Positions 24,915 to 64,000 of a DNA stretch of 64,000 bases are shown one piece after another; position 1 is the first letter of the stretch; each line of letters opens with the position of its first letter. A program made the translations under genes and the position numbers. Source of the stretch: Marsupella aquatica (lineage: Eukaryota; Plantae; Marchantiophyta); the NCBI GenBank assembly GCA_973895155.1, contig OZ316896.1, forward strand, positions 8,949,539 through 9,013,538, in the 5' to 3' direction. Below the pieces are notes generated by a model. That model was not told where the DNA came from. It saw only the letters and a program-made list of their open reading frames with translations, and made no database searches.

Positions 24915-25067
24915 TCTAACCAAAATACCTGGGAGAACTATGCCTTGACTTGGTACAAGTCTTGGAAGAAGTCACAAGAGGACTCCTACTTGCCGTTAAC
25001 TTGGGAAAACCTAGTTGAGGTTCTTCGTGCTCATGTCACCACTAAGTATCTAGAGCGGAACGCTTAG
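24915..25067 (+). repeat. Ty3/gypsy gag-like fragment; left half of the target site of element A
   Basis: NYALTWYKSW...LTWENLVE.LR (retrotransposon gag-like). Near-identical copy at ~47520-47652. Confidence 0.65.
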
Positions 25068-25084
25068 AACCCCAATTTAAGGAA
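25068..25084 (+). repeat. Left TIR of element A
   Basis: AACCCCAATTTAAGGAA, the exact reverse complement of 47452-47468. Confidence 0.9.
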
Positions 25085-28800: not shown

Positions 28801-28869
28801 AACCTGTTTCTCACGTATGCCTATAATAACTTGTCCGCCTTCCCTGATCTAGACTGTCGATGTCACCAT
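25864..28869 (-). pseudogene. DDD transposase, DUF7869/Sola-like (element A); one intron, premature stops, C-terminus truncated
   Basis: Motifs LIHDKMD, L*LDNCASDNKN, FMVVGHTHEDVD..F, CC..C and CTTC Zn-like motifs, and two N-terminal Tnp1/En-Spm-like repeats. Intron ~26981-26790 restores the frame. Stops at 28849-51 and 26740-42. Confidence 0.8.
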
Positions 28870-30433: not shown

Positions 30434-30679
30434 CTCGATCGAAGTCTACAATATTTTGAGTATTCGAAGATTAGATCTACAGATTCAAGAGTAGTTCAAG
30501 TTAGAACTTGTTATAGATACTGTGTAGCTTAATTTCGTCCCATGGAAAATAGTGTTCGAAAGACCAGGTCAGTTAAATTCCTGGATAGTGCTAGTGGATA
30601 TGGATTCCACATCCGAAGTCCTTCGGGACCGATGTAACCATTTTAGCAATCAAGGAAAAATCTTCCACGAGATTCCTCT

Positions 30680-33859: not shown

Positions 33860-34740
33860 CATTGTTGTTGATTCTCTCTCCTAGACTTTCGCACGCCTGC
33901 TCTCATCGCTCTCGCTCTCGCTCTCGCTCTCACTCTCGCTCTCGCTCTCGCTCTCGCTCTCGCTCTCACTCTCGCTCTCGCTCTCGCTCTCGCTCTCGCT
34001 CTCGCTCTCGCTCTCGCTCCTGCCCTGGATTTCATTTTCATCGTTGCAGCTCGTTCGTTATGGTCAGGTGCTGGTCGGCGCGTTGCAGCTCTTAGTAGTT
34101 GTCGATCGTTTCGGTCAGGAGCTCGTTGGCACGTTGCAGCTCGCATTTACAGCTCGTATTCACTTCTAGTTTGCTCGAAGGGATTCTTAGGAGCTCGTTG
34201 GGTTTGTTGCAGCTAGTTTGTTGGGAGTGTTCGTATCAGCTCATGTCAGCCAATTTTAAGCTCATATCAACTCCATCAACGTGTTTCAACAGATCGAACT
34301 ACTTTTTGGCAGCTTGTTTCAGCTCCTTTCATTCATCATTCAGGTTTGTTTCAGCTCTTTCAATCTTCAGGTTTAGTGCGCTTTTATTCATGCTCAGTTT
34401 GTCTATCGACAACTTTGATTGTACTTCAGGAATAATCTTTTTAACTCGACATAATGAGTTCCATAGCATTAAGCACATGTTATTCAATTGGCAGCAGCGA
34501 AGCTCTATATAGAAGCTGTGTTATTGTTGCTTAGCATATTTACTTTCTGGAATGCCGCAGCAAGGTCTTCAAGTGCTTGGACGTCAATCTCTCAAACGAT
34601 TACAACACTTTTTCAGAATTCAGGTGCAATTTCTACATTTTCTGTTGGTGTTGATTGTTGTTTGCTAAAATTTCTCTTGATTGTTAAGCTGAGTTTGTCT
34701 GTAAACTCAAATATGTCTGAATCATACAAACTCACTAATT
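33860..34740 (-). pseudogene. Degenerate coiled-coil ORF ending in a (GAGCGA)n Glu-Arg microsatellite
   Basis: (CTCGCT)n at ~33905-34020 on the + strand. The minus strand upstream reads as E/K/L/Q-rich helical sequence with many stops. Confidence 0.4.
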
Positions 34741-35149
34741 AAAATACAACCTGAATTGTATTAAGTAAGTCATTACAAACCTGCACGCTGTGAAATTTAA
34801 TCATATAAACTCTCATGTTATGTGAATCTCATTACACTGAATCATTTAATTGACGAATACAACCAGTAGACTGCTAAATTGAATCATCTTAGCTGAATCA
34901 TTCTCTAAACTGAATTCCATGCAATCTGAAAACTTCTGATATATAATAGTTTCACAATGACAGAGCTCAAACATCTGAGTTATTGTAAAGTTCACGAATG
35001 AATACTAGTGTGCTTGAATCATTCAATAAATGCATCATTGCACTTTTCTAGTTCAAAAACTCATGCTTACTCGGATTTCCCTGTCCGTACGGGTCAGTAA
35101 TCACAGTTGTATCACTGTATTATCCTAGTGTCCAAAAGTGGTTTGAGCT

Positions 35150-36905
35150 GTTGACGCGACCAGTCGCGTGAGAAGATTGTGAGGTTCCATTTTAGGGTCA
35201 GTTGACGCGACCAGTTGCGTCTGAGGGAGCTCTCTCATTGACTGGTTCCGTTAGAGGAGGTATGGTTCCATTTAGGACCAGTCGCGTGTGAAGGAGACAT
35301 GATAGATTATTGAGCGCGTTTAGGGTTTAGGTTCAGTTGACGCGACCAGTCGCGTGTGAGGTAGCTCTCTCATTGACTTGTTCTGTTAGAGGTATGGTTC
35401 CATTTAGGATCAGTTGACGCGACCAGTCGCGTGTGAGAAGGAGAGGATAGATTATTGAGCGCGTACCATATCCAAATCTCCACAAGGAAGGTTCAGTTGA
35501 TATAGTTGTTTAGGTTTAGTTGATACGACCAGTCGCGTGTGAGGTAGCTCTCTCATTGACTGGTTCTGTTAGAGGTATGGTTCCATTTAGGATAAGTTGA
35601 CGCCACCAGTCGCGTGTGAGTAGGAAACAGGATAGATTATTGAGCGCGTATCATATCCAAATCTCCACAAGGAAGGTTCAGTGGATATAGTTGTTTAGGT
35701 TTAGTTGACGCGACCAGTCGCGTCTGAGGTAGGTCTCATTGACTGGTTCTGTTAGAGGTATGGTTCCATTTAGGATCAGTTGACGCGACCAGTCGCGTGT
35801 GAGAAGGAGAGGATAGATTATTGAGCAAGTACCATATCCAAATCTCCACAAGGAAGGTTCAGTTGATATAGTTGTTTAGGTTCAGTTGACGCGACCAGTC
35901 GCGTGTGAGGTAGCTCTCTCATTGACTAGTTCTGTTAGAGGAGGTAAGGTTCCATTTAGGATCAGTTGACGCGACCAGTCGCGTGTGAGAAGGAAACAGG
36001 ATAGATTATTGAGCGCGTATCATATCCAAATCTTCACAAGGGCGGTTCAGTGGATATAGTTGTTTAGGTTTAGTTGACGCGACCAGTCGCGTCTGAGGTA
36101 GGTCTCATTGACTGGTTCTGTTAGAGGTATGGTTCCATTTAGGATCAGTTGACGCGACCAGTCGCGTGTGAGAAGGAGGATAGATTATTGAGCGAGTACC
36201 ATATCCAAATCTCCACAAGGAAGGTTCAGTTGATATAGTTGTTTAGGTTCAGTTGACGCGACCAGTCGCGTGTGAGGTAGCTCTCTCATTGACTGGTTCT
36301 GTTAGAGGAGGTAAGGTTCCATTTAGGATCAGTTGACGCGACCAGTTGCGTGTGAGAAGGAAACAGGATAGATTATTGAGCGAGTATCATATCCAAATCT
36401 CCACAAGGGCGGTTCAGTGGATATAGTTGTTTAGGTTTAGTTGACGCGACCAATCGCGTCTGAGGTAGATCTCATTGACCGGTTCTGTTAGAGGTATGGT
36501 TCCATTTAGGATCAGTTGACGCGACCAGTCGCGTGTGAGAAGGAGGATAGATTATTGAGCGAGTACCATATCCAAATCTCCACAAGGAAGGTTCAGTTGA
36601 TATAGTTGTTTAGGTTCAGTTGACGCGACCAGTCGCGTGTGAGGTAGCTCTCTCATTGACTGGTTCTGTTAGAGGAGGTAAGGTTCCATTTAGGATCAGT
36701 TGACGCGACCAGTTGCGTGTGAGAAGGAAACAGGATAGATTATTGAGCGAGTATCATATCCAAATCTCCACAAGGGCGGTTCAGTGGATATAGTTGTTTA
36801 GGTTTAGTTGACGCGACCAATCGCGTCTGAGGTAGATCTCATTGACCGGTTCTGTTAGAGGTATGGTTCCATTTAGGATCAGTTGACGCGACCAGTCGCG
36901 TCTCT
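35150..36905. repeat. Tandem array 2 of element A: ~180-bp units (higher-order ~360-bp dimer) with ~20 ACGCGACCAGTCGCGT palindromes
   Basis: GTTGACGCGACCAGTCGCGT recurs at alternating ~75 and ~105 bp spacing. Confidence 0.95.
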
Positions 36906-36984
36906 CTCATTGACTGGTTCACGTGACCCAAAAAATCACAATCTCCAAAAGAATTGTTCAGTAGACGCGACCAGTCCATTTGGC

Positions 36985-37536
36985 ATGGGGGAACCTAGTC
37001 TGGAGAGCTTCAGATATCTATGCCCAATATTTGACGTTTTGGACAGAAGCCAAGATGGTCTACTGGCGGGATATTCTGTATTTGTTGAAAGACTACTACC
37101 TGGACTTCCAGATTTCATTGTCGCGGAATTGATATGGCCTCGCACCAAGGAGTCCTTGAATTCCTCGGCTAATGCAGGAAATTTCTCAATAAAGGAATTG
37201 GATGAGTTTGTAGGACTATCTTCGGTATGTCGTAGATGGCGCCACCTTGTTGGGAATACCTATCTTCTGGGTGTAATCAAGTTGAGTTTATTAGATTTGG
37301 CTTCCCCAGGAAATCCTAGTAAACCGATCCAAAATGAGTCTCTCTCATCGACAGTTCAAAGTTTCTTCCAGAAATACCCAAGAATTAAATTTATGGGGTC
37401 AATGTCCAGAGATCTAAGGGAACTCTTCACGAAGACTTATGATGCTCTTCACCCTCTTGAAAAATGGAAATTTACAGTCAGATGCCACGAAGTTGGATAC
37501 CTTGAGGGTGACATCTATGCTTTTAAGGAATTCTAG
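36985..37536 (+). CDS. F-box-like protein 1 (cargo)
   Basis: LLPGLPDFIVAELIWP ... SSVCRRWRHLV. Confidence 0.6.
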   Translation: MGEPSLESFRYLCPIFDVLDRSQDGLLAGYSVFVERLLPGLPDFIVAELIWPRTKESLNSSANAGNFSIKELDEFVGLSSVCRRWRHLVGNTYLLGVIKLSLLDLASPGNPSKPIQNESLSSTVQSFFQKYPRIKFMGSMSRDLRELFTKTYDALHPLEKWKFTVRCHEVGYLEGDIYAFKEF

Positions 37537-37600
37537 TTAACTTACGTGACCAAGCGCGTCGTATGTCTTCTAACAATGTTTTGTATATGATAAAAGCAGG

Positions 37601-38125
37601 ATGAGCCAACTTTTGAATGAGGCTCGAGATTTCCTTTCATCTCATGAAAGGAAACAAAAAACAATATGGGATACGCTGGATGAAACCTCCTCTAGTCTCA
37701 TTGGAGGAATACCAGATGTTTTGGTCATTTCAAACATTTGGCCAATACTCTACAAACACTTTATTTCAATTGAAGAATTGCCTGGATATCGACACCCCGA
37801 GATTGATTTGGTTATGGATAGGGTCCAAGACCTTATTCGGCTTGGAGCTTGTAGCAAGAAGTGGAACTTTTTAGTTACAAATACAAGGTTATGGGCTATC
37901 CTCAAACAAGCAAACCGGATTGTCGATGTCGCAAATGATGCTCTTTACGACATACCCAAAACTGACAAGTTGGAGTTTGACTCAGTCTGTTGAGCTATTC
38001 GACAGGATATTTCTATGCTTCCAGAAATATATGTTCTTGGGACTACTACTTCTGACAAAATCTCATTGTTTACCAACAAATATAACAATTTAGATGAGGA
38101 AGAACGAGATGTCCTAATCGAAAGG
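37601..38125 (+). pseudogene. F-box-like protein 2 (premature TGA at 37991)
   Basis: LIGGIPDVLVISNIWP ... ACSKKW. Similarity to paralog 3 continues past the stop (ISMLPEIYVLGG vs IRTLPPLDILGG). Confidence 0.6.
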
Positions 38126-38201
38126 TTTGGTAGATTTTCTCAGAATCTCTGTGGTCCCAGTTCTTAATTGATAGGTTCTTGTTCTTAATCTTTTCCATAT
38201 T

Positions 38202-38732
38202 ATGTTGCAGTCCTTTGACATGAATCGAAAATCTCATCGTCAAATGATGATGGAGCGCATTGCACGTGCAAAGGTTATGAACCGAAATATGATATGGAGT
38301 CAAGCTGAAGACCTGATACCCGGTCTTCCGGACGATATTGTCGAGAAATATATTTGGCCATTAGTCAAAGAGTTTTTCCACTGTCTTGGGAATTTGTCGG
38401 ATAATGCGATTAAAAATCGGGTCATGGACTTGATCGCCATTCGGACAGTCAGTAAGAAGTGGTGCCACATAGTTACTTATAGTAGTACTTGGGCGACGGT
38501 CACCTTGGTAGCTTACGACTTCACTGATAGACCAGGATATGAATCGCTTCGAAGGTATTTGACTTCACGGAATGTAGCATTCAGATTTATAGAATCCATC
38601 AGAACTCTCCCGCCGCTGGACATTCTGGGTGGATTTGTAGGATTTGAACTTGACACGTTTAGGAACCTTTGGTTTTGGTTAGATGAAGATGAGCGAAAGG
38701 ATTGGGTCAAGGAAAACATTCCTAAAATGTAA
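38202..38732 (+). CDS. F-box-like protein 3 (cargo)
   Basis: LIPGLPDDIVEKYIWP ... RTVSKKW. Confidence 0.65.
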   Translation: MLQSFDMNRKSHRQMMMERIARAKVMNRNMIWSQAEDLIPGLPDDIVEKYIWPLVKEFFHCLGNLSDNAIKNRVMDLIAIRTVSKKWCHIVTYSSTWATVTLVAYDFTDRPGYESLRRYLTSRNVAFRFIESIRTLPPLDILGGFVGFELDTFRNLWFWLDEDERKDWVKENIPKM

Positions 38733-38807
38733 TTCGGCACGACGCGACCATGCGCGTGTTAGTATTTTATAATAAATGTTTAACTTTCAATATTTGTCTA
38801 TTTCAGA

Positions 38808-41800
38808 ATGGATCATACCGGAACTTCAAAGCGGAAAAGAGACTCGTCTAAACCTGCTTCTCAAAAGAAAGCCAAGACAAGAACGACTCCCGTGGAGACA
38901 TCCATACTTGCATATCGAGGAAAGTCAATCAGAGAGAGAACAACGGAGACAAAGAGTATCCATCTCTTTGATTCGACTGAGATATCCGATCTTGGAATAG
39001 TCGTTGACAATGGGGCTGTCCGTCGTGTGGTGGCAAAAAATGATAAAGCTACAGTTTTGGAGAGATCACAAATTCTTGGGTGTTTGTTTGAGAAGAGCAT
39101 GAAAGTGAAAGAGTGTATAGAAGGATTGGTTCTGCTAGTCAGCGACGACCAGCAGGATGACAAAATAAACATTTGTTTGGATCGAACGCAATATGTAACC
39201 TTCAATCAGTCCAGAATCGATGATCTTCTAGGTGCAAGGCACGCTTTGGAAAAGGTTACTAGTGTGGGATACCCTTCCGATCCAGAGGGATCAACGGGAG
39301 ATTTGATTTGTCAATACATTATTGATGTACTTGAGTTCCAGAGAGTTCCTTTCAACCAGGGATTTTGCTTGGGAAAGGCCCCCCCAGTGACCAAGGTTGA
39401 AGTATACTCGGCGGAGAATCTTTCGAAAGTCATTACCTCAGCGAATGTCGGGGCTCTGTTCGATTCTTTCCTCAAAGAATATAGTGCTGTGAATATATTT
39501 AACAGCAAGTCATTTTTTGTTGAGACATCACGTTGTCATCTTGCACCGGACCACATCAAGTGCCGAGAGTGGAATCAGGATTACACAGATAGGCTAAAGA
39601 ATTCACTCCTCTCTCATTCGGCTATAAAGTTCGAAAAGCGATGCTACTTTTTAGTCCCTGTGAAGTGGGTTCAGTCGGAGGCCGACAGAGATCCCAACTA
39701 CAATGGGACACCCTACGATTCGGCGCCAACGGAGGAGGACATTATGACCAGTCATTTTTGGATACTCGGAGGCCAGCACACAATAATGGCGTACAAATTG
39801 CTGAGGATGGACGACAAAGTCAGCCAAGTTGTTCGGGACGCATGCGGTACAGTAGAAGCTGTAATGTTTTGGGCAACTCTCAACAACGACAATAATGTTC
39901 ATTTGATGGGACTATCGAAGGCTCTGAACCACTGTCATCAAACATCAATGGAAGAAGGATAGTTTCTCACCATTGTACCTCAGTGTCGTAATATCTGGAA
40001 CTCATTCGGGCGGCCTAGATCACATTATCGTCATCCAAATTGGAAGGTATATAAATAACCATCTTCCCTAAACCCTAAACATTATCTTTTAAATGTTTTC
40101 TCACGCAAACGGTCGCGTCAATCTTAGAATATTCATGTTTCCATTGTTTTTCAGGTATTTATGAGAGCTACGAGTTTTGTTTGCCCATGGGCTCAAATGG
40201 GGAAGAACGAAATGATGAAATTTGGAGAATTGGCTCCATTTCTCTTTACAATGGAGGACGAAACATTCAAGAAGTGGATGGAGGTCTACGAACTATCAAG
40301 GACAGGAGAGCTTGTAATTTACAACGGAATTTTACAGAGAGACGCCGTCAAAATTGCGGATAATCCATGTGCTTATCATCTCCTTAAGAAGACGTTCCGT
40401 TCTTGTCAAGGGTGCTCGGACTCGGTTCTTCGAAAGGCAGCGGAATATATGTTGAGCGGAAGACTGTCTATACTCAAAAACCGAAGCATCAAAGTGAAAT
40501 CTGGGAAGGCGAGGAAGTCCTCTGAGGCTCCGGTGTTGTCAACGACCATCATGAGTTTGGAGCAATTCTGTATAAAGAAGAAGACGAAAGTTGAGTTTGA
40601 GATTTTATTATTGAGTAAACTCAACGGGGATACATCCACCCGGACGGAGCTGAAAAGTCTGACAGATTCAGCGCGGAAATTGCGGGTCAACGGAATGATT
40701 GATCGCTTTAAGCTCGACAAGATGGTGCTGAAGCAGTTGAGAGATGCGTTGAGTGGTTATCTGAAGAAGTGCTTAAATGTAAATATTAGTAATGATAATT
40801 TGTTGAAGGAGATAGACCCGATATTCTACAGGTTGGTGGAAGGAATACAGAAATCAGTTGATAGTCAAGGAAACCAACTAGTGCGGCCGGTCGGTGAGAG
40901 GCTGAAATTGCGATCTCTGCAGGATATACAAAATGCTGGGTTTGCAGACTGTATCATACGTGAAGACAAGAACCTTGCGAGCTTGATTTATTTTGATTCC
41001 TCATCAATGGGAGATTTGCGTCCGCCAAATTGCTCATTCTATGAGGGGTTATTTTGTGCTACTAGCGAGATAGGGGCAAAACCACACCATGTGGTTATTA
41101 TTGTAGCCTCTCCCGTTGAGTCTTATTTAATCAAACGGGAATTAGGGAAGTACACACACTACGTTGCTGTCGATAACCATTATATTCAAAAGCGGCCAAA
41201 GGAGAAGAAGCTTATTGTAACCTACGCTTTTCACAGCTTGGCCTTCAGCACAATGGGCGATCCACAAGCCCTCGAGTTCCAGTTGGTCTCCAAATATCGG
41301 ATTGATAAGATAGCCAATTTTGAAGAGAGCGGCGAGTTTACGACACCTTCCCCAGAAAAGATACTTCCATTCTTTGAAAGTATTGTTAGTCAATTCGTCC
41401 AATGTGGGGAATGGGCTATATGCTTCGGCGAGGGAACGAACTTGATCCAGTGCCTAATGGTAAGTTTTGAGATTTATATTTTGGGGTTTCGATTTTAAGA
41501 TTATTTGGATTTTCATATTCTCAATTAATATTGTGAACTAATTTCGGCTTGTTTTACAGGATGCTGGATCCAATGTAAAATATTACTGCCCTGTGGCAAC
41601 GCATAAGGAGTTGTCTTGTTTCTTGCAACACACCACGGCGACAATTGATACAACGCTGTCATTGATTGACCCAATACGGGCTAGTATAGAAAAATGTATA
41701 GATAAATTAATGAAGTACCGTCCATCCGTAACTGCTCTCAGGGCTGATGTCTTGGATGTCCTCCACGAACAACATATCCCAGATAATATTTGTAATCAAT

Positions 41801-43697
41801 TATTGCAAGAGTATGCCCTCTCTGAAGATTCCAATCGATTGTACATTCGACCAACGGAGTACCCTCGTGGGCCATTCCAAGGTAGGTTACTTTTGAACCC
41901 TCTTACTTTTTCTTGGGTCACGCAAACATGCGCGTGGACATTCTCAACATTTCTTTCTAATCTAATGATCTGATTTTCTTCAGATCAAGTCGAACGCGGC
42001 TCCAATGTTGAGGATGCAGGGAGCAATGGTGATGCGGATGGTGAGGGGGAAGGAGACGCGGAAGGTGACGCGGATGGGGATGTCAATGACCAAGATCCAG
42101 AGTGGATGACCGATACCCAGAACGACGTCGGATATTCTGACAAAAGCGAGGAAGAGAGTGACGGAGAGGAGATGAAGGACGTTGAGGATGATGAGGACGC
42201 TGAGGACGCTGAGGACTCTGAGGACGCTGAGGACTCTGAGGACGCTGAGGACTCTGATGAAGAGGCCACAAAGGGCCTTGTCATGAGGCGGACCAAGAGG
42301 AGGCGGCCCGGCAGGAGGACGCCCGGCAGGAGGCGGCCCGGCAGGAGGCGGCCCAGCAAGAGGAGCTTCAAAAGAAAGAGGCGGTCCGACAAGAGGCGGC
42401 CCGGCAAGAGGCGGCCCGGAAGGAGGAAGCCCGGCAGGAGGAGGCGACCCGGCAGGAGGAGGCCCGGCAAGAGGAGGCCCGACAAGAGGAGGCCCGACAA
42501 GAGGCGGCCCGGCAAGAGGAGCTTCAAAAGAAGGAGGCTAAGAAGAAAAAGGCGGCAGCTAGAAAAGCAACTGCCACAAAGAAGAAGGAAAAAGCCGACG
42601 CTGAGAAAGCCCAGGCGGAAAAAGCCCAGGCTGAAAAAGACCAGGCGGAGAAAGCCGAGGCTGAGAAAGCCAAGGCTGAGAAATCCCAGGCTGAAAAAGA
42701 CCAGACGGAGAAAGCCGAGGCCGAGAAAGCCGAGGCCGAGAAAGCCAAGGCCGAGAAAGCGGAGGCGGAGAAAGCCCAGGCTGAGAAAGCCCTTTTAGTG
42801 ACCGAGGAAAATAGGGCCGAGGCGGAGAGAGCCGAGGCGGAGAGGCTGCTGGCCAAGAGGATGGCGGACCAGAGCGAACAGACCGCAAGACCGGAGAGGG
42901 AGGAGGCGGAGGAGGCACAAAAGGTTGATTCCGCAAGACTGGAGAGAGAAGATACCGCAAGACTGGAGAGGGTGGAGGCGGAGAAGGTAGAGGCAGCGAG
43001 GAGGGAGGCCGAGAGGGCCAAGGATCTTTCGCTTATTCCTGAAGCACAACGTCTACCGAAAATAAAGCTGAATTTGAAGAAGCCTTCTTCACCCTCGGTT
43101 GCAGTTAAGAAGAAAATATTAGACTATTTTCTTCGGCCGGAGTTTGAGTTTAACGATCCACCCTTAAGAACGGTCTCGTTGGATGATTGGAATAAATATT
43201 CACCGGAGCAGCTCCGAGTCCAGGCTATCTTGGCTTTGCAATATTGGAAGGGTCTTTTGATTACCGAGGAGAAGACTTCCACTGCATCCAGAATGGAGAC
43301 AATCATCAATAATGTCCGATTTTCCGAGAATCGAGTGCAAGACCTGGGAATATCTCTGGCACCAGACTCGGCTCAAGTCGTTAAGAGACTAACAGCTGAG
43401 TTGATGCGACCGGGTTCGTGGTCTCGACCCCGATATACTGCAGAGGTCACTCGCGCGGAAATTGTGGCCCCGGATATTTTGGAATCGGATTCCCAGATTG
43501 TTGAATATTTAAATCAAATGCCACAACCATTCGAAGGTCTTCCTGCCTCATCGCTACAACCTTCGCAAACTGGTCCGTTGGAGCGATCACTGCGGTCTCG
43601 AGGAGGGTTGAAGGATGTTGTTGCGAAGGAGGCACCCAAGAGATCAGCTGTGAAAAGGCCGGATCCACCCAATCCAAAGGTCATCCGCAAGCTATAA
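38808..43697 (+). pseudogene. Large spliced protein: ParB/Srx-like domain + degenerate beta-class N4C/N6A MTase fold + acidic tract + EAARQ/AEK coiled-coil repeats
   Basis: FWILGGQH at ~39760; EKILPFFESIVSQFVQCGEWAICFGEG at ~41355. Frame-preserving introns 40047-40154, 41460-41559 and ~41882-41983. Stop at 39960 and frameshift at ~42280. Collinear similarity to the element B gene. Confidence 0.65.
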
Positions 43698-43829
43698 GCT
43701 TAAAGTTTCTATTATAACAGTCATTATTTTATTATTGATTTGTTATTGTTTCTGTTTTCTGAGGTAGAACCCTTAGGCTACAACCTCAGTACGTTATTTG
43801 AAGGCGTACTGAACCTCTGTTTTTTGCAG

Positions 43830-45605
43830 TTTTTTGAAAATTTGGCTAGTCGAATAGATCAATGCCTTGATCCTTCTAAGGATATGGAAGAGCTATTGAC
43901 CAAGTTCTTACAACACTCGATCAAGAGAAAACATATGATGTGTCTGAGACCACGCGAGTTGCTCACTGATGATATAATTAACGCTTATTTGAGTTTTCTC
44001 GAACTGATTCTCGATAGAGTTGGAAAGTCAGACCTTGTCAAATTCTTCCAAACACACCATTTTGAGCTTCTCTCCATGGATCCTACCATTTTCGATGAGA
44101 GAGCATCTTGGACAAAGGAGTTTCCGCTGAGAATCAATGAATACGACAAACTGGTCTTTCCAGTACACAATGCCGTGAAAGAACATTGGTCATTGGTAGT
44201 TGTGTATCCGAAGGAGAAACGGCTCGAGTATCTAGATTCCCTAGTTCATAATCGACAGAATCCTGGGGTGCTAGATATTGTTGGGAAGTATTACGCCGAC
44301 GAAATTGGCTGGAGAACTGGTGTCAACTTGGATCTCTCAGGTTGGGAACGGATATATCGGAATGATATTCCTCACCAGAGTGACGGGCATAGTTGTGGTG
44401 TGTTTATCTTGAGATTCGCCAAGTGCTTGTGTCAAGGAAACGAAATTAATTTTTCCGCGGATCAAATTGAGAAATTCCGTAGGGAGATAGTCTTGTCGTT
44501 ATTTGACATGGACTTCCGCAAGCCGACGTCCGCAAATAACCTAGTTATCGGGATCCGTGCTGCTATGATTGACATTGGCGGAATTGAAGTACTGAACGAC
44601 CGTCTTGTACAGGTAATACACTTCATTTCAGTATCTCTTTGTAGTCACGCGACCATTCGCGTTATAAACTTATTTTCATTTCTTAATGTTTTACAGAAAC
44701 CTATCCTGAAACCCCTTGATCGAGTATCGAAGGCACCAGTTTGGAAGTCCGATGATCGTCGTCTGGAGGCGGGAAACAAACAGACCGTTCTAGTCTGTTC
44801 TCCAAACCCTACGACACAAAAGTCACAGGTACAGATGGCGCCTAAACCATCGGCGCAGAAGTCACCGGTTCAGAAGAGACTTGTAATTTTTGATCTGAAT
44901 CGGGTACTTATCTGGTCAGAGAAGATCATCCCTGGGATGCCCATTCGGTCAAGGGGGGTGAGACACATGTACAAGGTTATCTATCCAAGGCCTGATTTAA
45001 TGGAATTTCTTCAGAAGGTGGCAGATCTATACGACATTGCGATCTGGTCATGCATGATGAAACGGAATATTCTATCTTGTTTAAGGCTGATACTTCGACC
45101 CGAAGTTTTGAAACGTATTAAATTTATATGGGGACAAGAATCAACTCGACCTATTGGGAAGAATAATAATGACATCCCCTTATTTGTCAAATGTCTCTCT
45201 GACATTGCCGCCGATATTAAAGATTACAACATCGAAAATGTCATTCTTATCGATGATGCTGCATATAAGACGAGCCTTAATAACTTCTACTCATCGTTGT
45301 ATCCCGATGCATATTCTGGGCTCGATGATGACATATTTTTTAGAAAGAAACTATATCCATATCTATGCGACATGTCAATTGACAAGTTGACATTTCGCCG
45401 GCTCCTTAGTGACCATGGGATTCCAACGTTCTCTCGCGAGAATCTTGAGAAAGATTATATTGATAAGGCGAATCTTTGGAGGAGAAATGTGATCATTCGT
45501 AATCAGGGGAATAAAGACCATTTAGAAAATTTTGACGAATATATGAAATACTTATCTGCCGAAAAAGACCGTACTATAGAAGCCCGGGATAAGTCCGATA
45601 AGTAA
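43830..45605 (+). CDS. Ulp1/SENP (peptidase C48) domain fused to an FCP1/NIF HAD-like domain
   Basis: LTDDIINAY, EHWSLVV, YLDS and HQSDGHSCGVF give an intact H-D-C triad. LVIFDLNRVL, RPDL.EFL, IAIWS and ILIDD follow. Likely in-frame intron ~44613-44696 and AG acceptor at 43829. Confidence 0.88.
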   Translation, partial: FFENLASRIDQCLDPSKDMEELLTKFLQHSIKRKHMMCLRPRELLTDDIINAYLSFLELILDRVGKSDLVKFFQTHHFELLSMDPTIFDERASWTKEFPLRINEYDKLVFPVHNAVKEHWSLVVVYPKEKRLEYLDSLVHNRQNPGVLDIVGKYYADEIGWRTGVNLDLSGWERIYRNDIPHQSDGHSCGVFILRFAKCLCQGNEINFSADQIEKFRREIVLSLFDMDFRKPTSANNLVIGIRAAMIDIGGIEVLNDRLVQVIHFISVSLCSHATIRVINLFSFLNVLQKPILKPLDRVSKAPVWKSDDRRLEAGNKQTVLVCSPNPTTQKSQVQMAPKPSAQKSPVQKRLVIFDLNRVLIWSEKIIPGMPIRSRGVRHMYKVIYPRPDLMEFLQKVADLYDIAIWSCMMKRNILSCLRLILRPEVLKRIKFIWGQESTRPIGKNNNDIPLFVKCLSDIAADIKDYNIENVILIDDAAYKTSLNNFYSSLYPDAYSGLDDDIFFRKKLYPYLCDMSIDKLTFRRLLSDHGIPTFSRENLEKDYIDKANLWRRNVIIRNQGNKDHLENFDEYMKYLSAEKDRTIEARDKSDK

Positions 45606-45730
45606 ACATTTATTGTTTATTTTCAATTATTATTTATAAATTGATTGAAATTGAACTTTTGGGAGTGACGCGCCCGGTCGCGTGGTTGTTTGCAATTGCA
45701 TAATATGAGAATCGACTTGTTCATTTACAG

Positions 45731-46438
45731 GTGTCTAAGTGGAGCAGGTCGCGTCAACTTCTAGTTTTAGGACTGGAAAACTTCCTATGCTCTGTTTCAA
45801 AATATACTCCTCAGCTTAAGTCGACACCCGGAATTTGTATCGAATCTCTATGTGTCGTTCCGAGGCTGCATCTTCATGATCTTATAAAATTCTATTATGA
45901 TCATTTTGATGTGATGGTCTGGTCTATTCTCGACGATAAACTGGTTTATCAGATACTTTCAAAAGTGTTGTCGAGCACCGACCTGTCGCAGCTGATATAT
46001 GTGTTCACGCGGGATCATTGCTGGAATCTTGGTTATGTGAAGAAAAATTATAAGACTGTTGTCTTCAAATCTATCGAGAGACTACGTGATATGTTTCAAG
46101 ATTATCGACCAGAGAATATAATCCAGATTGATGCCTCTCCTTCCCATACATGCCACAGCGCTGTATGCGGATTATTGTTCGCTAAGTCGTTTCAAGGATC
46201 GTTGGATGATGTCTTTTTGAGGGATGACCTCATTCCATATTTACGAAAGCTATGGGATTCAGGGCTCTATCTTGCATTCGCTAACAAGTTCGATTATCCC
46301 ATCTGGTCGATTAGAAATCTACATCGAGATTGGGATCTGAACGAGGATATATGGGAGCATCTGTACGTGCAGAGACATGCGGATCAAGTTCTTATCAAGC
46401 ACTTCAATAGATGTCACTTATCAATGGCCAGAGTGTAG
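45731..46438 (+). CDS. FCP1/NIF-like HAD-fold paralog 2 (catalytic DxD motif lost)
   Basis: LLVLGLENFL, PRLHL, FDVMVWS, ENIIQID. Preceded by an AG acceptor. Confidence 0.75.
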   Translation: MSKWSRSRQLLVLGLENFLCSVSKYTPQLKSTPGICIESLCVVPRLHLHDLIKFYYDHFDVMVWSILDDKLVYQILSKVLSSTDLSQLIYVFTRDHCWNLGYVKKNYKTVVFKSIERLRDMFQDYRPENIIQIDASPSHTCHSAVCGLLFAKSFQGSLDDVFLRDDLIPYLRKLWDSGLYLAFANKFDYPIWSIRNLHRDWDLNEDIWEHLYVQRHADQVLIKHFNRCHLSMARV

Positions 46439-46527
46439 AGGATGTTGGCTGTCTGTAATATTTGACGCGACCATTCGCGTGACTACGTCCATACGGGCTC
46501 ATGCATCTTCTTGTGTTTCTCTACAGG

Positions 46528-47158
46528 AGAATCATTGCAGCAGAGAAAATGGGCTCATAGTTTTAGACGTGGAGCATCTACTCTGTTACACTGCACGGCA
46601 TTCCCGACTGATGGCGGTCTCGACTGGAATTCGGATTGGGAATATATACGTTTTTCCAAGGCCTCATCTTCACGAATTCTTGAGATTCTGTTTTGAGAAG
46701 TTTGATGTAGGGATCTGGTCCTCTCTTGGGAAGAGCCTTTTAGATCAGATTTTAGCATCTATTTTTACTGCGATGGAAATGGCCTCATTTAAGTATATTT
46801 GGGATGAGTCTCATTGTTACTTATTTATACGAAGGCGTATCTGCAGCAAAATATAATGCTTATCGATTCCGATGCATTTCATGCTTGTTTAGATCCTGTT
46901 GTTGGATCATTATTTCCGCCCAAATATTTTGGGTCGGTCGACGACAGTTTCCTGATTAACTTGCTGATTCCGTATCTTAGCAAGCTAGCAAAATCTTGTG
47001 AGCCGCTTGTCATTGCCAATGGAAGAGATTATCCTGATTGGTCAGTTAAATCTATTTTTAGAGATTATGATTATAATCATACTATATGGGAAGACCCTGT
47101 GATTCAGAGGCATGGAGATAGATATCTAGTAGAGCAATTTAACAGACGCCCAATTTAG
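46528..47158 (+). pseudogene. FCP1/NIF-like paralog 3 (frameshift/deletion at ~46825)
   Basis: LIVLDVEHLL, PRPHLHEFL, FDVGIWS, then NIMLIDSD in another frame. Clear similarity to paralog 2. Confidence 0.75.
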
Positions 47159-47451
47159 GACGCTTCCGAAATAATAGTCGGCATGAGATCAGATTAATTT
47201 GTATTATCGTTCTAGAAACGATTTGTAATCTCCCTATATACTGGTTATCATATATAAAGGATCTCAGAGATTTATTTCTCTTTTGTTATTATTTGCGTGA
47301 GCATGTCTCTTGGTCCCGTCAAGTTGGAGTGCGTCAAAAATCTTAGTTGCAGTCATTTTCAGGGTTTCACGCGCAATGACGCGTCATGTCTCCCCCTTTT
47401 TATATTAAAATAATAATATTTAGTGATTTTCAGAATTTCCAAAGTTTGGTT

Positions 47452-47468
47452 TTCCTTAAATTGGGGTT
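47452..47468 (-). repeat. Right TIR of element A
   Basis: TTCCTTAAATTGGGGTT followed by the TTAG TSD. Confidence 0.9.
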
Positions 47469-47472
47469 TTAG

Positions 47473-54045: not shown

Positions 54046-57000
54046 CTACTCATCAATTATACCTTCCATGTAAATTTTGAGAGTTTTCAAAACATTCTTA
54101 GGAATTGTCAAACCTCTATCCATAATATTTTGTTCTTTAGCACCTGACTTAAACCCATACATTGCAGAATTTGCAAACTGCCAACTTTGAGTAACATTGT
54201 CAAACCCAGGATCCAGCTCCCAAGTCTTAGTGGTTTGAAAGCAACGTTCATATCGAACATCATCCTTTGCATCATACTTACCATGTTTAGGCCTCCACCA
54301 TTGTACTTGGAACATAGGAGCATTCCTAAGAGGAATGCTCTCAACAGACGTTGAAGAAGACCCTTCAATATGTTGCAAATATGTTGAGGGAACCTCATGG
54401 TTTGGATCCACACCACCCAAAGCTCGAACCAACCAGAAACGCCCTTTGCCGTTTTCCTGTTCCCATTCATCCTCTGGACATAAAAATACAAAGTGACCTT
54501 CTTGAATATCTTGTAGAGGAATCCAACATGCAGGTTCTCGCTCTTGTCGTGCACCAACAAAGGGTGCAGCTTGATCTTCCATCTCTTCCATGTACTCATT
54601 TTGAAGGTCCATCATCTCTGGATTTTGAGAAGGTTCACTTGACGACTGAGATGTCCCCAAAATCATCTTGTAACCTATGCCATGGTTAGTCTTTGGCCAA
54701 AAATCAGTTGTCAATGACAAATGTCTTTCCCCCTCCCCTTCTATTGTAAGTTCCTCGGACAGTGCTTGCACAAGATTCTCCCAATATTTGACCAGAGGAA
54801 ATCTCTCTTTATATGCTGCAGAGGTCTCATCCTTACAACTTTTCTTCAAGAAATCAATATAGCGATTAAGGAATGGGATGATTTCTCCAGCCTTCTTTTG
54901 TACATCCTCAGATATAGGTTTTGCAAATGGTTGGCCTTCCGGTAAAATGAGCGCATTTGTGATGGGATCAGTTCTCCAAATGGACCTCCCCATTGCCAGA
55001 AGCCAAGGTTGCTTGACATGTGCTTTATATTGATACACTGGCACATTATCTCTCATGGAGAAAAGAAATGCCACTGGTTTTGAGTGACCTTCTATCTCTT
55101 TCACCTGGAAAGTTTTCAAATACTCCTTGTAAGATGCAACCTCTTGAATCAATCGTGGTACAGGATGAATGCTTTCACACTCCCAAACCTCAGCCATCAA
55201 CCCCAAGAGGGTAGACACCTCTTTGTATCTGACCTATTTGGATACTTGAGAAAATAATTCATCCACGTCTTCATGGGTGTGGCCAACCATGAGGAATGAC
55301 ATTTGCACAATTTCAAACACCCCCTGCTAACAAGCTAAGTGCAAAATGCCATCACATATTGATTTTTGTTATCTTTCCCTGAATTGTCCATCTACAACGT
55401 TAGGTGCCTTGGTAAGGGCTTGAAAGAGCCCCTAGTAGTCTCAGGATCATCCTTAGAACCAACATCCACTGTGCTTGACTTTTTAGTCTCCTGACCATCT
55501 TCAATGCCTTGAAATCGAACAATTGAAACATTTTTGGGTTCCAAGTAACCGGCCAGAAATGCTTCAAAGTCTAGAAGGGACTGAAATATTGGCCTAGTTG
55601 CATTCCAATTCAATCCCTCAAGAAGGTCTCCAGTTTTGTCTCCTGTGTAATCTTCCAAATCTCGGAGGCATTTGGCCAAAGATGTCACGGTAAAGTCTGC
55701 ATCTCCAGGCCAAAGTCCAGTCAAACTGAAATGTGCATACACTCCAGGATCTCTTCCATGGGTTAACATCCCAGTAAGAGCAATAGGCAAAGGCTGACCA
55801 CTACCAGAGAGGGATTTTGGAGTGGGGACCAACCTGGGGATCCAAGTCTTGGCTTGATCCATCTTATCGTGAATAATGCAAAGATAGTTTTGAGGATCCT
55901 TCTTTGCAAGAACCCTATGAGCATAGTAAACATATTTTCTTGACATTTGTTCACGAAGATGTCACGCTCTTTTCTCTTCAATCTCTGCACGCTCTTTTTT
56001 TCTCTTCTCCCGCATCAATTGATCTTTGAACTCAGTGCAAAATGTGCACTTGGCAAATGCACTTCCCTTGTGAAAGTCAAAATTATCAAATGAGTTTTTC
56101 CAGATGTTGTACATAGTAACTTCAGTAACCTTAGCAAACCCATCTAATTCCATCTTGGTAAACACCTCTTGGAAAATCTCCTTCTTAGTAAAACAAGATG
56201 GGAGCCGATATTCAATAGTGTCAGTGCCGTTGGACCCACCATAGGGAAGATGTGGCATTGGTTCCCCATTTTGGATTAAAATGGACTCCAACAAGGCGCG
56301 AGCGTGCAAAGTGCTTGATCGTGTCTTCCGTTGTCCCTGATTTCCATGGAAACCAATTGTGCAACCAGCTTCGTATTGATTTTTGTAGTCATAGTACTTT
56401 GTTGTACTGAACCCATGCATTTTAATAAATGCATCTTTACAAACCACACGTCCCTTTAGAACAAAAAATCCCTTTCTCTTGACTTGCTCCTCTCTACACC
56501 CAAAGAGACTAAAGATGTGACTTGTTTTGTTGTCACTTGACATTCCATGGTATTCCCTCCTCATTGCCTCTAAGTCCTCCCTGGGCATGTTCAAGCAACA
56601 CTTCAGCTTGCAACAACCTTCTCTTTGGATGGAATCAATGGACTCCTCGTTAATTTTCAAAAGTGCCCTCGACTCCAAATGCCTTTTCTTCCTCTCCTCA
56701 AGATCAACTTTTGTCCTCCTAATGAAATTGTATGGTCTTTTTGTAGGTTTACCATCACCATCCGAATCCGGATCGCCCTTAGTTCGACCCGACTCCATCC
56801 ACTTCTCTGAAACTTCCTCAAGGATATCCCCAAGAAACCTTTGAGACGAAATCAATAGAAGGGATTTGATTTCCCACCTCACCAAGCCAGGGGTACCAAC
56901 ACGGATATTTGGAAATAATCTGGGTTCATTGATATTCACAACAGCAACACCAACATGATCTGCACCAAGAAGTTCATCGTCAACGGCACCTGTTTCAAAT

Positions 57001-57761
57001 GGGACCGTGATAACACCTGTTGCAACCTTTCGACAACGAGAAGCTTCATACAAATCAACCTCCTCTGCCATCCAGTTGGAACGTAGTGTAAAATCTTTTA
57101 ATGGAAGATCATTGAAAATATTTGAACTACCAAACACGCCAAAATCTCGAAGAGTGCCCTTTCTAGAAACATGCGCAACATCCCAGATAACCCAGGTATG
57201 CAAGGCCTCTTCTATTGTATCAGCTCCAGGGTGCGAGTATGGCAATTTTTGATTTCCCTTAACAATATCAGATATTCTTATACTGATGCGACCAACCCCG
57301 AGTGTTTCAGTATGACAAATATCCATCGGATTTGTCTTGAAAACAACTCCATTTGCAACCAACTGATCAAAAATGAACATCTGAACTTCATCTCCTTCCT
57401 TGAACACATCCTCTTCAACCCTTGCATCAATTTTGGATTTATCATTTCCAGCATCTCCAGCCAAAGAGAAATCATCGACATTGATTCTTCGGCGCTGAGT
57501 TGATAACCTCAAGTATGCCAATGCACAATCCCAAATCATGCAGGAGTCAATTGCCTCAGCCAATGTAGAAAATTTGGGCGAAGGAAATGGAAGTTGACGC
57601 GATCCATCAAAACACTTTTCGATCAATACCCCAATTCGATTGTCCCCTAGACAACTGTTCTATATAGTATCCTGGGGGTCAACCTTTTGAACTATCCCAA
57701 TTGCCGTTTCAAATCCATCGATCACCAATGACACTTCATCCCCTCGTGTAAAATTGATCAT
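54046..57761 (-). pseudogene. DDD transposase, DUF7869/Sola-like (element B); several stops and a frameshift
   Basis: IIHDKMDQAKT, L*MDNSGKDNKN, FLMVGHTHEDVDELFS, GCCKLKCC, FAKCTFC, and three N-terminal Tnp1-like repeats. Stops at ~57660, 55962, 55392, ~55336 and ~55235; 1-nt deletion at ~55322. Confidence 0.85.
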
Positions 57762-59377: not shown

Positions 59378-62300
59378 ATGTCTACTTCCTCCAGTTCTGA
59401 AGCTTCCACCACCTCCGCCAGTTCTCAAGAGTCATTGAACTTCAATTATAACTCTCCGTATGAATATGACCCTGAAGACCCGGATGTCCAAAAATTGGTT
59501 AACAATGCGTTGGAGGCGTCAAAGAAAGCCCAGTTAACTTTTCCACGTAAGGCACCACCTGCTTCAACTTCTTGCCTCGCCCTAAGGGCGAGGCAACTTT
59601 ACTTTAATTTGGATTTCAAACTTCTTATTAGGAAAATTTCTATATTCCTTTGCAGTCGCCTCGCCCCAAGGTCGAGGCGACGTCTACTTCATTCTAGATT
59701 TCTTGTTGCTCCGAAGGCGTATTGGACCTTGTATCTTACATTAATAAAGGATCTTTAGCTATATTCTATTTTTTGCCTCGCTCTTGGGGCGAGGCGATGT
59801 CGTCTGCATTCCTCAAATGTAGTCTGCATTCCCAGAAGTTGCCTCGCCCTTGGGGCGAGGCGATGTTATCTGCATTCCTAAATGTTGTCTGCATTCCCAG
59901 AAGTTGCCTCGCCCTTGGGGCGAGGCGATGTCCTCTACATTCCTAAATGTTGTCTGCTTTCCCAGAAGTTGCCTCGCCCTTGGGGCGAGGCGATGTCCTC
60001 TACATTCCTAAATGTTGTCTGCTTTCCCAGAAGTTGCCTCGCCCTTGGGGCGAGGCGATGTCCTCTGCATTCCTAAATGTTGTCTGCTTTCCAGAAGTTG
60101 CCTCGCCCTTGGGGCGAGGCGATGTTGTCTGCATTCCTAAATGTTGTTTGCTTTCCTAGAAGTTGCCTCGCCCTTGGGGCGAGGCGATGTCGTCTGCATT
60201 CCTAAATAATGTTTGATTGCTTGGATGAGGTGGCAGGGCTAATTGCACTAGGAGCAAAGAAGATTTTGCAATCTTCTATTTGTCGCCTCGCCCCAAGGGC
60301 GAGGCACCTTGAAAGTTTTCCACATGTCAATGTTAAACTATGATGTTGACCATTTTGTTTTCAATGTTTCTTACCAGGAAAAAATCTTGAGAAGCCGGAG
60401 TTAAATATTATGGACGAGGATATCAAGGACTTTGTTTTCCCTGACCAAGATACTCCAGGATTTAGATGGGCACTAGAAGTTGGGGTGTTGGCGGAAGGTA
60501 GTCTCTTGATTTGTGTCAAGGGCCTCACAAGTCAATTGAATGACCGCAAGACAATTGTTACTCTAGGTCCAGTCGTCCTTGTGAACACAGAAAACAACCG
60601 CAATGCAACGATTATTGTTGAGTCCAATGAGAAATCTCAGTGGATGAGACTTCTAGTGCCAATAAAACTCTACTCGACTTTACTGAATGTTGAGTGGATG
60701 GCTCGATTGGAGATAAGCGTAGCTGATATGGGATTCTTCCCAGATGGAGTAACAATTGATCAGATGTTTGAGAAGACGCGTTCTCAAATAAGTGGAGTTG
60801 ACCTAGTGTTTGGATTTCTCTACGTAAAGAAGCACATGCATGACAATGCGGACAGTGTGGACCCTCCGTCTACTTGGATAGTTCAAAGGATGATTGATAA
60901 GGCACATTTTTCATACGAGCAAGCAATCGACAAGAGTTTCATTTTTTGTCCAGAGTTTCAAGAGGCCGCGTGCCGGACGTGGATTTCAGAGATGAAGAAA
61001 AAAGAAGCAAAGCATAAGGCAAAGGAGAGAAAGAAGACAGTGGAAAGAAGTGCGCAATCAAAGACAGAGAAGAAACGAAAGCTTCAAGAGCCAGTTGTTC
61101 AACAAGAGAAACAATCTGGGAGTTCACGCCGTAAGAAGATGGCTAAAAAAAATGAAGATGATGAGGGCCCCCAAAAAAAGCAGACAAAGAAGGCAAAGGT
61201 TGCGAAATCAAAACCAATGTCAGGGTTGACTTCAAACTTTGTCTTGCATCCAGAGGATGATGTGTCCGACAGAAGGACCCAAAGAAGATGATGTGCTCAA
61301 AGGCCAAGAGGTTTTGCGTAATATTGAGCAGTATTATACTTTTGGCATCCGCGAAGTTTTTGATATTCTTGTAAAAAGTATTAATCCGCCATCGGCCGTT
61401 TTTGTATATCGAATGTTCAATCTTTCGCATGCAATGGAGATATCAAAGTCTATGATGAAAAACCCTGGACAGGAACCACAAGTTGCTGATTTGATTCCGT
61501 ATTGCGAGAGCACTAAACAGTTGCTTCATTATGACAACACACCTCAGGATAGGAAAGAGTTTTTGATTGGTGTGAAGAAGCATGAGATCCAATTCCTTGC
61601 CATCAGTGGCCAGCATTCTGCAAGAGCTGCCCAATGGATCCAAGGGTGGGCCGAGACTGACGCCAAGCTGACAGATCTTGCCAACAAACTAAAGTATAGG
61701 AAAGCAAGGATCCTATCTGACCTCACTCCGAAGACAATTTTGGTTGAGCATTCAAGTTTATCGAATGCTGTCAATGATACTATGCAATTTAAGTCTTGTT
61801 TTTTGGAGACTATTGTTCATGCACGAAGGCAGTTTGAGGAGTGCGGGAAACCGCCGCGTCCAGGGATTGGGACCAATCAAAATACAGACAGGAAAAACTA
61901 TCAGGTACATGTTGGAGCAACGCAAACTATTCTTGATCCGCTTTGTTTAAAGATTGTCAATGGTAGAGGTTTGCCTCGCCCCAAGGGCGAGGCTGCCTTT
62001 TCTTGTTTTCCTTGGTTAGAAGATTAAAGCAAATGTTTGCCTCGCCCTCAGGGCGAGGCAACCTAGACTAGTCTCTCTAAGAATAATTCCCTAGTTCCGT
62101 TTTAGTCAATTGCGGTTAGATGTAGAGGTTCGCCACGCCCTTGGGGCGAGGCGGCTTAGCCTGTTTCAAACATAGGTATAAATTTTCTAACATATGCATT
62201 GTACCCTGAAACTAATGTCAAGTCCATTGGATATGCAGGATTGGTTTGCCCTGGCAAAGGTTACAATGGGGAAGTCAAGCCTAAAGAGCATTTATTGGTT

Positions 62301-64000
62301 ACTTTTTGCCGAAGATGAGCTCTTTGAATTATGGCGGAACGTGTGTGCAAAATGGTTGAGTGGGAAGCTCCAAGACAGGGCTGGTGGGTATGGAGGGCCA
62401 AGACCCCCAAAATTGATCACTCCCGGTACCTTTCGATGCTTTGAAGGAGAGATTAGTAGCAAACAAATAATTGAGATCTTGAAGGATGTTGAAGAGGAGC
62501 GTGTCTTGCTGAAGAAGGATATCACCAACAAATTAGAGCTTGTCGCAATGGGAGACTTGGCCCTTACAATCAAGATAATGTCCAAATTGAGAACAATCAT
62601 TATTGGCTATTTCATGGAAAAGTATCGTGAGAAGTTTCCTGTTGGCACATCTTGGGAGTCTCTGGTGATATTGTTGCCTTCCTTGAAATCTGAGCTTGAG
62701 ATGACAAAATTGAGGAGAGCAACGGGTGAGGTTTACCTCAACAATTCATTGAAGAAGAATGTGGTCAAGGAGAGTTTCCCACAAAGTCTGATGGTCAGAC
62801 TAGATGGGTTGTATTGTAAAGAATTTGGTGGGATTGGTCGTTCTCGCACGGAGCCTTTCTTGACATTTTTTAGTGAGAATTTGATGAAGACGATCATGCC
62901 GGAAATGCTACAAGAGCCTTCGCCTTTGTGTCCTCTTGCCATTGTTGACTTCAGTAGGCTCCGACAACATGTTTGGACCGATGCTGAAATTATTGCATTA
63001 CTGCAATACATTGTGGATCTTCCAAGAAATCCAACAATTGTTGTTGTCATGACTGTGCATCCGGGGCCACTTGCTGCAAACATTTTGAGTGCCCTTAGGA
63101 AATTGCAACATGAAAAGGGAATGGACATCCACGTCGACTACGGGAGCTATCGACGGAGTGATACACCAGTTCCAGAGGGCTTACTTTTCAGTTGTGGTAT
63201 GGAGGAGATAATCTTTGCAGGAATCACCACTGAGGAGAAATTTGATTGGAAGCAAGTGTTCAGGCCTGGATTTAATTGCCAATTTTCTTACAATTCGGCG
63301 ATCGACCCTGATTTCCAAGTGGAAGACAAGACGGAGAAGCGAGATAAGAATAAGAGTAAGACAAGTAAGGAGACAGAGACTGAGTCAACTTTGGCATTTC
63401 ACATTGGAGATTTCTTACGAAAGGCTCCCATGTTTGAGATGGTGGGAAGTAGAGGTGGCTTTGTGAATATTCACGCTAAGCCAAAATGTATGCTGCAGAG
63501 TATTATTGAATTTTTTTCGGCTGAAGGGGAGACTATACTTGACTTTTTCTCGGGAGGACAGGTTATGAAGGTGTCATTGTTGTGTTTCAGAGAATGCTTT
63601 GCGTATTCAGACACTGAGGATGAATATGATTTCACTCAGGCATATGGAAGGGTTCTCTGCGAGAAAGTTCCTTCCATAATGAGTGACCGGATGGGCGGTT
63701 CCAAATTTGGTAGAGCCCGCGATGGGGTTTCCGAGCATGTTGGTGCCAAAGAAGGCGTAGACCAGGGCGAAGATGATATTGAGGAAGGAGAATTGGGTCA
63801 CGACACAGACGACAGGGTCACCCAAAATTTGGATGAACGTGGAACACAAGTGGTAGGTATTCCCTACTTTGGTGTGGGGTTGGCTGATGTTGTGGGTCGA
63901 CCTGAGGGCGACCCACCAAGAAATCCCTTTGCCGGTGTAGAGAATTGGATGCACCAATTGGACCCAGATCTTACATCGTCCACATTGGACGCACATTGGA
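59378..64000 (+). CDS. Element B ParB/Srx-like + beta-class N4C/N6A DNA-methyltransferase-fold protein (spliced, runs off the window, frameshift at ~61270)
   Basis: Frame-preserving introns 59547-60377 and 61905-62238. FLAISGQH at ~61595. Exon 62239-64000 is open (absent from the ORF track) and encodes VNIHAKPKCMLQIIIEFFSAEGETILDFFSGG...R.C at ~63465-63600. Confidence 0.75.
59770..60205. repeat. 65-bp tandem array (x~7) in intron 1, each unit carrying GCCTCGCCCTTGGGGCGAGGC
   Basis: Palindromes at 59775, 59841, 59906, 59971, 60036, 60100 and 60165. Confidence 0.95.

Follow-up and report, generated by a model that had tools for sequence, protein, structure and literature searches.

The combination of a ParB-like and a methyltransferase domain on a DNA transposon is already described in brown and red algae. 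The Ectocarpus element Sola1-1_Ec32 is reported to be 21,549 bp long, with AACCG-CGGTT termini and a 4-bp duplication, and to carry on the opposite strand a gene for a protein of 1,104 amino acids (aa) with a ParB-like and an N4C/N6A methyltransferase part, predicted to make N4-methylcytosine (4mC) or N6-methyladenine (6mA); similar proteins are cited in green and red algae (PMC12477816). The Plavaka elements of Bostrychia, with accessory genes PAG2 and PAG3, carry a PF01555 gene, a ParB-like gene and inverted-repeat arrays beside the ParB-like genes (10.1101/2025.02.11.637652). Here we report on a 64,000-nucleotide (nt) stretch of contig OZ316896.1 of the liverwort Marsupella aquatica (the window), which holds two transposon sequences, elements A and B. 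At its right edge lies a reading frame (62239..64000, + strand), which an initial annotation had described as a hidden exon with an N4C/N6A methyltransferase fold and a degenerate catalytic motif. Our preferred reading, to which we give a probability of roughly 0.6, is that this exon (exon 3) is part of the accessory gene of a Sola1-like transposon, element B, and that the gene encodes a pseudo-methyltransferase protein that binds its own element.

The likeness to Sola1-1_Ec32 lies in the giant size (about 22 kb for element A), the AACC-type ends, the 4-bp duplication and an accessory gene opposite the transposase gene, whose product of about 1,100 aa has a methyltransferase domain and a ParB-like domain, the latter putative here; the proteins were compared by description only. 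The Sola1 label rests on this likeness, and the link of the window's own transposases is DUF7869 only; 4-bp duplications are, as background, also known for Sola2 (among PMC10288648, PMC5751038, PMC3627910, PMC5753468 and 10.1101/2025.02.28.640899). The accessible description of Sola1-1_Ec32 does not give the state of its catalytic motif, whereas the land-plant family treated here lacks the PPY. With the PAG2/PAG3-bearing Plavaka elements the locus shares a giant DNA transposon with a methylase domain, a ParB-like domain (putative here) and adjoining inverted-repeat arrays; Plavaka differs in its EnSpm-type transposase and in having the two domains in separate genes, the methylase fused to SET and the ParB-like domain to a 2-oxoglutarate (2OG) oxygenase.

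The Marchantia DN4MT1a/b and rotifer N4CMT proteins are likewise eukaryotic beta-class domains of prokaryotic origin, described as active host enzymes that keep SPPY (10.1101/2021.02.12.428880, PMC8885841). As described, they differ in not being transposon cargo; DN4MT1 has no extra domains, and N4CMT carries a chromodomain. SPPY of this type is absent from the exon 3 family in the alignment described below, and the comparison with these host 4mC genes in the initial annotation is not upheld: the motif is kept there and lost here, and exon 3 very likely belongs to a transposon accessory gene. A precedent for a transposon-borne amino-methyltransferase domain judged inactive exists in the DIRS1 retrotransposons (PMC4738411), which differ in being retroelements and in their PCIF1-like structural group; their domains are reported to keep an NPP triplet (preprint 10.64898/2026.05.21.726589), and the accessible part of the review lists no clade that fits the exon 3 family.

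Fold and motif IV of the exon 3 family

The + strand is stop-free in this frame from 62191 to 63999 (603 codons) and the frame is open at the window end; 587 codons follow an acceptor AG ending at 62238, as the initial annotation had estimated, a length that would arise by chance with a probability of about 1e-13, given how often stops occur in the window. The frame is missing from the default list of open reading frames because no stop lies inside the window, and its 'hidden' status is a window-edge effect. Its product consists of a conserved, mostly helical region (residues 1-200; 62239..62838), the methyltransferase-like domain (residues 203-484; 62845..63690) and an acidic tail. The helical region is modelled with high confidence, is 36-46% identical to close relatives and has no fold match (best structural match Z 4.7). 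In six close relatives (P0001, P0107, P0108, P0109, P0112 and P0120), the acidic tail is followed by a conserved C-terminal domain (W-x-x-G-P-x-K-G, ending in E-[YF]-G-[ST]), which has no Pfam match in the relatives scanned and would fall beyond the window end in the exon 3 protein.

An AlphaFold2 model of the exon 3 protein (mean predicted local distance difference test score, pLDDT, 90.4) was compared with known structures. Foldseek (E 1.2e-7) ranks CcrM, PvuII, MboIIA, HpyAVI and RsrI first, and structural alignment with CcrM gives Z 18.1 and a root-mean-square deviation of 3.4 with 215 aligned residues over residues 203-484. RsrI and MboIIA follow with Z 16.4 each and rotifer N4CMT with Z 15.5, compared with about 12 for METTL3-type enzymes; apart from rotifer N4CMT, the top 20 structural matches consist entirely of beta-class enzymes of prokaryote type. 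The model shows the permuted Rossmann-type arrangement with motif IV before motifs X, I and II, and viral models and a language-model atlas also point to the beta-class amino-methyltransferase family. On this modelling, the fold of exon 3 is that of a beta-class amino-methyltransferase, catalytic half included, as the initial annotation had proposed; its N4C or N6A ancestry cannot be told. CcrM, M.RsrI, M.MboIIA and M.PvuII share the fold and the motif order (IV before X and I) and differ in keeping D/SPPY; they are 7-16% identical to exon 3 and have no ParB-like fusion in those structures.

Relatives were collected from a representative library (106 proteins at E<=0.001) and from two further searches (five more). 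Alignment A1 comprises exon 3 and 109 of these 111 relatives (P0062 and P0086 left out), 110 sequences altogether. Searching with the A1 profile recovers M.RsrI (E 7.8e-10) and M.MboIIA (E 0.006); a single-sequence search of the PDB with the exon 3 frame found nothing. Pfam N6_N4_Mtase matches exon 3 in the motif X/I block only, where the initial annotation had seen it (E 0.0048; 17.3 bits, below the cut-off of 26.7). Among 31 relatives hand-picked from the 111, 25 match this family at E<=0.05 and five reach the cut-off. The block on the S-adenosylmethionine (SAM) side, with motif X (V-N-x-x-x-K-P) and motif I (ILDFFSGG, from 63535), lies at 63463..63558 and is supported by Pfam, the profile and conservation. 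Conservation is highest in the SAM half, whose identity to eight close relatives is 41-65%, compared with 16-27% for the variable region; the fold is therefore under selection.

The motif IV position is occupied by LAIVDFSR (62935..62958), in which the Asp is kept and PPY is absent. Two approaches agree with the initial annotation in placing it where DPPY is expected: a global profile alignment with four solitary prokaryotic enzymes from fetched loci sets D-F-S-R on D-P-P-Y with probability 98, and in the model the Asp of LAIVDFSR, Asp237, ends strand 233-237. Local alignment of exon 3 with prokaryotic enzymes covers the SAM half only. No PPY follows the motif IV column in any of the 45 A1 rows that have a residue there, and [DNS]PP[YFW] occurs nowhere in the 110 aligned sequences; the column holds Asp in 42 rows, Glu in two and Asn in one. 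The survey of homologs for an intact DPPY that the initial annotation had proposed thus returned none among the rows covering the column, in line with the inactivity it had considered probable.

The D-[FL]-x-[RH] state and the conserved SAM block recur across Riccia and Calypogeia proteins that are 20-50% alike, and the loss of PPY is, as read from the alignment, old and shared by the whole family, and is not a product of decay in the window copy. Neutral decay of a functionless captured gene, or domestication as a host gene, would fit the frameshift of the window copy and its several amino-acid-changing differences from other copies; this recurrence and the multi-copy nature of element B speak against either, and we consider both very improbable. 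On the state of its motif IV, the exon 3 family is placed as a descendant of the beta class of PF01555 and not as an active member of it. It probably carries out no canonical N4C/N6A transfer, having lost the prolines and the aromatic residue by which the flipped base is held. In rotifer N4CMT, SAM contacts are assigned to motif I and II positions, and the target amino group is flanked by the Ser of motif IV and the carbonyl of its first Pro (PMC10406627); the changes in motifs IV and I, and the uncertain acid of motif II, fall on these positions, and canonical amino-methylation is therefore unlikely.

The conserved residues could also belong to an enzyme of altered chemistry, one that binds SAM and uses the conserved Asp to methylate RNA, a protein or DNA at an unusual site without needing a PPY pocket. 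Besides Asp237, the family keeps Lys414 of motif X (46 of 47 rows) and Asp435 (41/44), Phe437 and Gly439 (42/44 each) of motif I; the motif III region often has an acidic residue, and even in distant relatives no part is better preserved than the SAM half. Several of the SAM contacts assigned in N4CMT (PMC10406627) nevertheless look lost: position 457, at the end of a strand and aligning nearest the ribose-binding acid of motif II, is Ser or Ala in 31 of 41 rows, and the next position is Asp in only 18 of 40 (exon 3 included). The motif I loop is one residue shorter than in the compared beta-class enzymes, the motif IV prolines are gone, and element A's copy has lost motif I too. We regard altered chemistry as unlikely, and take the same view of a SAM-dependent, sequence-specific anti-silencing factor, or new methyl chemistry, acting at parS-like palindromes in an old ParB-fused liverwort family that has given up PPY but retains the Asp and the SAM block. 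Less likely again is an inactive, METTL14-like partner that steers or blocks an active beta-class enzyme such as the liverwort 4mC methyltransferase: beta-class enzymes act as multimers (PMC10406627), METTL14 provides a precedent (PMC4738411) and Marchantia has active 4mC enzymes, but no active partner is encoded in the window, where xPPY-like matches occur only in short unrelated frames.

Named relatives belong to the liverworts Calypogeia fissa (46% identity) and Riccia sorocarpa (about 20%). A tree of 31 rows, three of them prokaryotic, did not resolve the backbone and gave element A a very long branch; no donor or order of events is claimed from it. Pattern scans of metagenome, viral and prokaryote contigs yielded one true family locus (L001) of 17; the other matches were short and, for the 19 loci translated, lay in ordinary prokaryotic methylases, and as the loci were selected by a DFF pattern their likeness in motif I is partly built in. 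A tblastn search of phages with the relative P0112 found nothing, P0009 matched only the motif X/I block of phage methylases, and locus L025 was a marginal match. No protein of at least 1,750 aa was found with alignment A2, which is weak evidence. Bacterial contamination was ruled out by GT..AG introns, plant-type neighbours and liverwort relatives. We found no paper on the liverwort family or its lost motif in a literature search that left most subscription journals outside.

Accessory gene structure and the ParB-like domain

The accessory gene appears to consist of three exons on the + strand with compatible phases and at least about 1,150 codons. Splice signals point to a putative exon 1 with the start codon (59378..59546) and, together with phase only, to intron 1 (59547..60377; GT..AG, phase 1), which contains 10 palindromes, including a 65-bp tandem array. 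Exon 2 (60378..61904), delimited by its frames, other copies and relatives, comprises an N-terminal region without family match (60378-61000), a basic linker and a ParB/Srx-like domain (about 61296-61904) with an S-G-Q-H motif near 61605. Intron 2 (61905..62238; 334 nt, GT..AG, phase 0) contains three palindromes. The initial annotation's view of the frame as an exon spliced to upstream exons is strengthened by the relatives: the sequence runs on without a break across the exon 2-3 junction in P0112 (1,009 aa) and in two gene models of Calypogeia, P0017 and P0107, and a GT..AG intron stands at the equivalent point of genomic locus L001. This support for the junction is indirect but good. The window copy lacks two bases at 61259 and is frameshifted as a result. 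Since other copies carry the two bases, the frames at 60350 and 61230 are parts of one exon; two separate upstream genes at these positions were rejected on the same ground.

The S-G-Q-H domain is also fused to the methyltransferase fold in the Riccia proteins P0085 and P0091, and the fusion likewise occurs in P0112. The arginines of the ParB block are missing from the domain, searches of NCBIfam and PHROGs returned no ParB match, and a model of the ParB-like and helical parts together, in which the ParB part is poorly modelled, had no fold match (best Foldseek E 0.35; best Z 4.7). On sequence grounds, its identity as a ParB domain is plausible but weak. By language-model features, the N-terminal domain of P0112 is nearest to DUF3723 clusters (0.97; 195 of 256 shared); Pfam gave no DUF3723 match in eight proteins. 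DUF3723 likewise occurs on giant transposons, the fungal Starships (10.1101/2021.12.13.472469), which differ in using tyrosine recombinases; the link to P0112 is a lead only.

Elements A and B and their palindromes

We consider it very likely that the exon 3 gene is a transposon accessory gene. It stands head-to-head with the DUF7869-type DDE transposase gene of element B (54049..57659, - strand), which is identified by Pfam, broken by stops and a frameshift, and homologous to the transposase of element A (E 1e-43). The same head-to-head layout is found in element A, a complete 22.4-kb Sola1-like transposon (25068..47468). Element A ends in AACC…GGTT, with a perfect 17-bp terminal inverted repeat that starts AACCCC, and is flanked by TTAG duplications (25064-25067 and 47469-47472); where a unit of the target repeat is uninterrupted, TTAG occurs once (47649-47652). 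Its transposase gene lies at 25867..28848 (- strand; Pfam DUF7869, E 1.6e-31).

The counterpart accessory gene of element A (38784..41459, + strand), recognized by motifs, alignment and profile, consists of a ParB-like exon, which extends to about 39960, and, at 40155-41459, a methyltransferase-like exon that is more eroded and has LIYFDSSS near 40983 and AICFGEG as its SAM motif. The initial annotation was right that this SAM motif is more eroded, but the homology to exon 3 is weaker than it implied: pairwise BLAST of element A against the exon 3 protein gave nothing significant, and the family profile matches only the helical part of the element A exon (E 6e-4 among 720 window frames). The match of LIYFD to LAIVD rests on the multiple alignment and the shared gene layout.

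Contigs that are 85-100% alike along the whole of element B number 560 to 9,464 in four runs of two studies, a depth that is not a copy number, and element B is on this evidence a multi-copy repeat family. No RNA data set was among seven runs carrying matching sequence, which has no bearing on expression. The window copy differs from the others at several amino-acid-changing sites. A candidate left end is 53455, where long contigs of two runs begin and the contigs of another run diverge; no matching end or duplication was found in the window for it, and the right end lies outside the window.

Element B carries thirteen 21-bp palindromes of the form GCCTCGCCC-N3-GGGCGAGGC (59574..62152; arms checked), compared with none expected in 100 shuffles, and within the window all are confined to the two introns of the accessory gene. 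Element A has its own palindrome family, with 60 matches on both strands, all within the element. Alternatively, the protein might be a structural helper of transposition, acting in end pairing or target choice, with the palindromes bound by the transposase or arising as by-products of tandem amplification. This would agree with the arrays that element A has between its two genes and beside its transposase gene, with the many palindromes that are part of tandem units, and with contig joints at which other element B copies lack parts of the arrays. It agrees poorly with the palindrome positions: those of element B all stay at least about 6 kb away from the likely left end, with none in or beyond the transposase gene, and none of those of element A lie within 1 kb of either end. 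We hold this explanation to be improbable, on a level with altered chemistry.

Several further features were observed. Both transposases have a stop at the equivalent codon just before the [LM]DN block (TAG at 55392-55394 in element B and TAA at 26740-26742 in element A, both - strand); the simple reading is independent C-to-T decay of one codon, with a splice site or read-through not excluded. A 73-bp tandem array with its own imperfect palindrome lies between the two genes of element B (57888-58214). In element A, two frames with weak F-box matches (E 0.017 and 0.0027) lie between the palindrome arrays and the ParB-like exon (36877-38732, +). Acidic and EKA/RQE-type low-complexity repeats (41974-43697, +) are probably the tail of its accessory gene, and a Ulp1 protease domain and NIF/FCP1-like phosphatase domains follow (43704-47156, +). 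The Riccia relative P0088 has a NIF domain in one gene model with the pseudo-methyltransferase, and NIF genes may therefore be regular cargo. Between the two elements is a Helitron Rep-helicase gene (49121-52711, +), split into two frames by a stop at 49646-49648, and an Armadillo-repeat host gene frame is located at 8122-10359 (+).

A proposed role: binding without methylation

Accessory proteins of this kind have been proposed in print to bind and chemically mark their own transposon. In the exon 3 family the fold is kept under selection without the catalytic motif, which speaks for binding, and against writing, as the conserved function. Under our preferred reading, the element would encode a protein that joins a ParB-like domain to a dead beta-class methyltransferase fold, the latter serving as a DNA-binding or dimerising module, and this protein would attach to the palindromes of its own element but not methylate them. 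Sequence-specific binding to the palindromes, probably as a two-fold symmetric dimer, is the part of this scheme we favour by a small margin over its absence. More tentative is the benefit: the bound protein may shield CG/CHG-rich sites from host silencing or keep the element transcribed, for which the VANDAL anti-silencing proteins offer an analogy (named in 10.64898/2026.05.21.726589); a structural role in transposition ranks next. The frameshifted window copy could only be served in trans.

Several observations weigh against this reading. Only in the two elements of the window did we observe linkage to a transposase, and the related locus L001 is only 1.8 kb long. The ParB-like domain aligns with the G-E-R-R block of seven bacterial ParB sequences at E 0.13, its profile score against ParB (15.3) is barely above the best of 60 shuffles (14.9), ParBc_2 matches the domain of element A only (E 0.066; one of eight proteins scanned), and the pLDDT of the modelled domain is mostly under 55. 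The catalytic half alone, without the motif I anchor, aligned to DPP in none of 14 single prokaryotic enzymes, so that the register of motif IV has its support from the global alignment and the model. A bare scaffold would not need conservation as strong as that of the motif IV Asp and of the residues on the SAM side, and the palindromes could be transposase sites.

The architecture itself is known and the window copy is broken; what we did not find in print is the loss of the catalytic motif throughout the land-plant family. The window holds two distant elements that differ both in palindrome family and in their version of the protein, a setting in which to ask whether protein and palindrome are matched. 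Matches to PF01555 in liverwort genomes should be treated with caution and not be read as extra 4mC writers.

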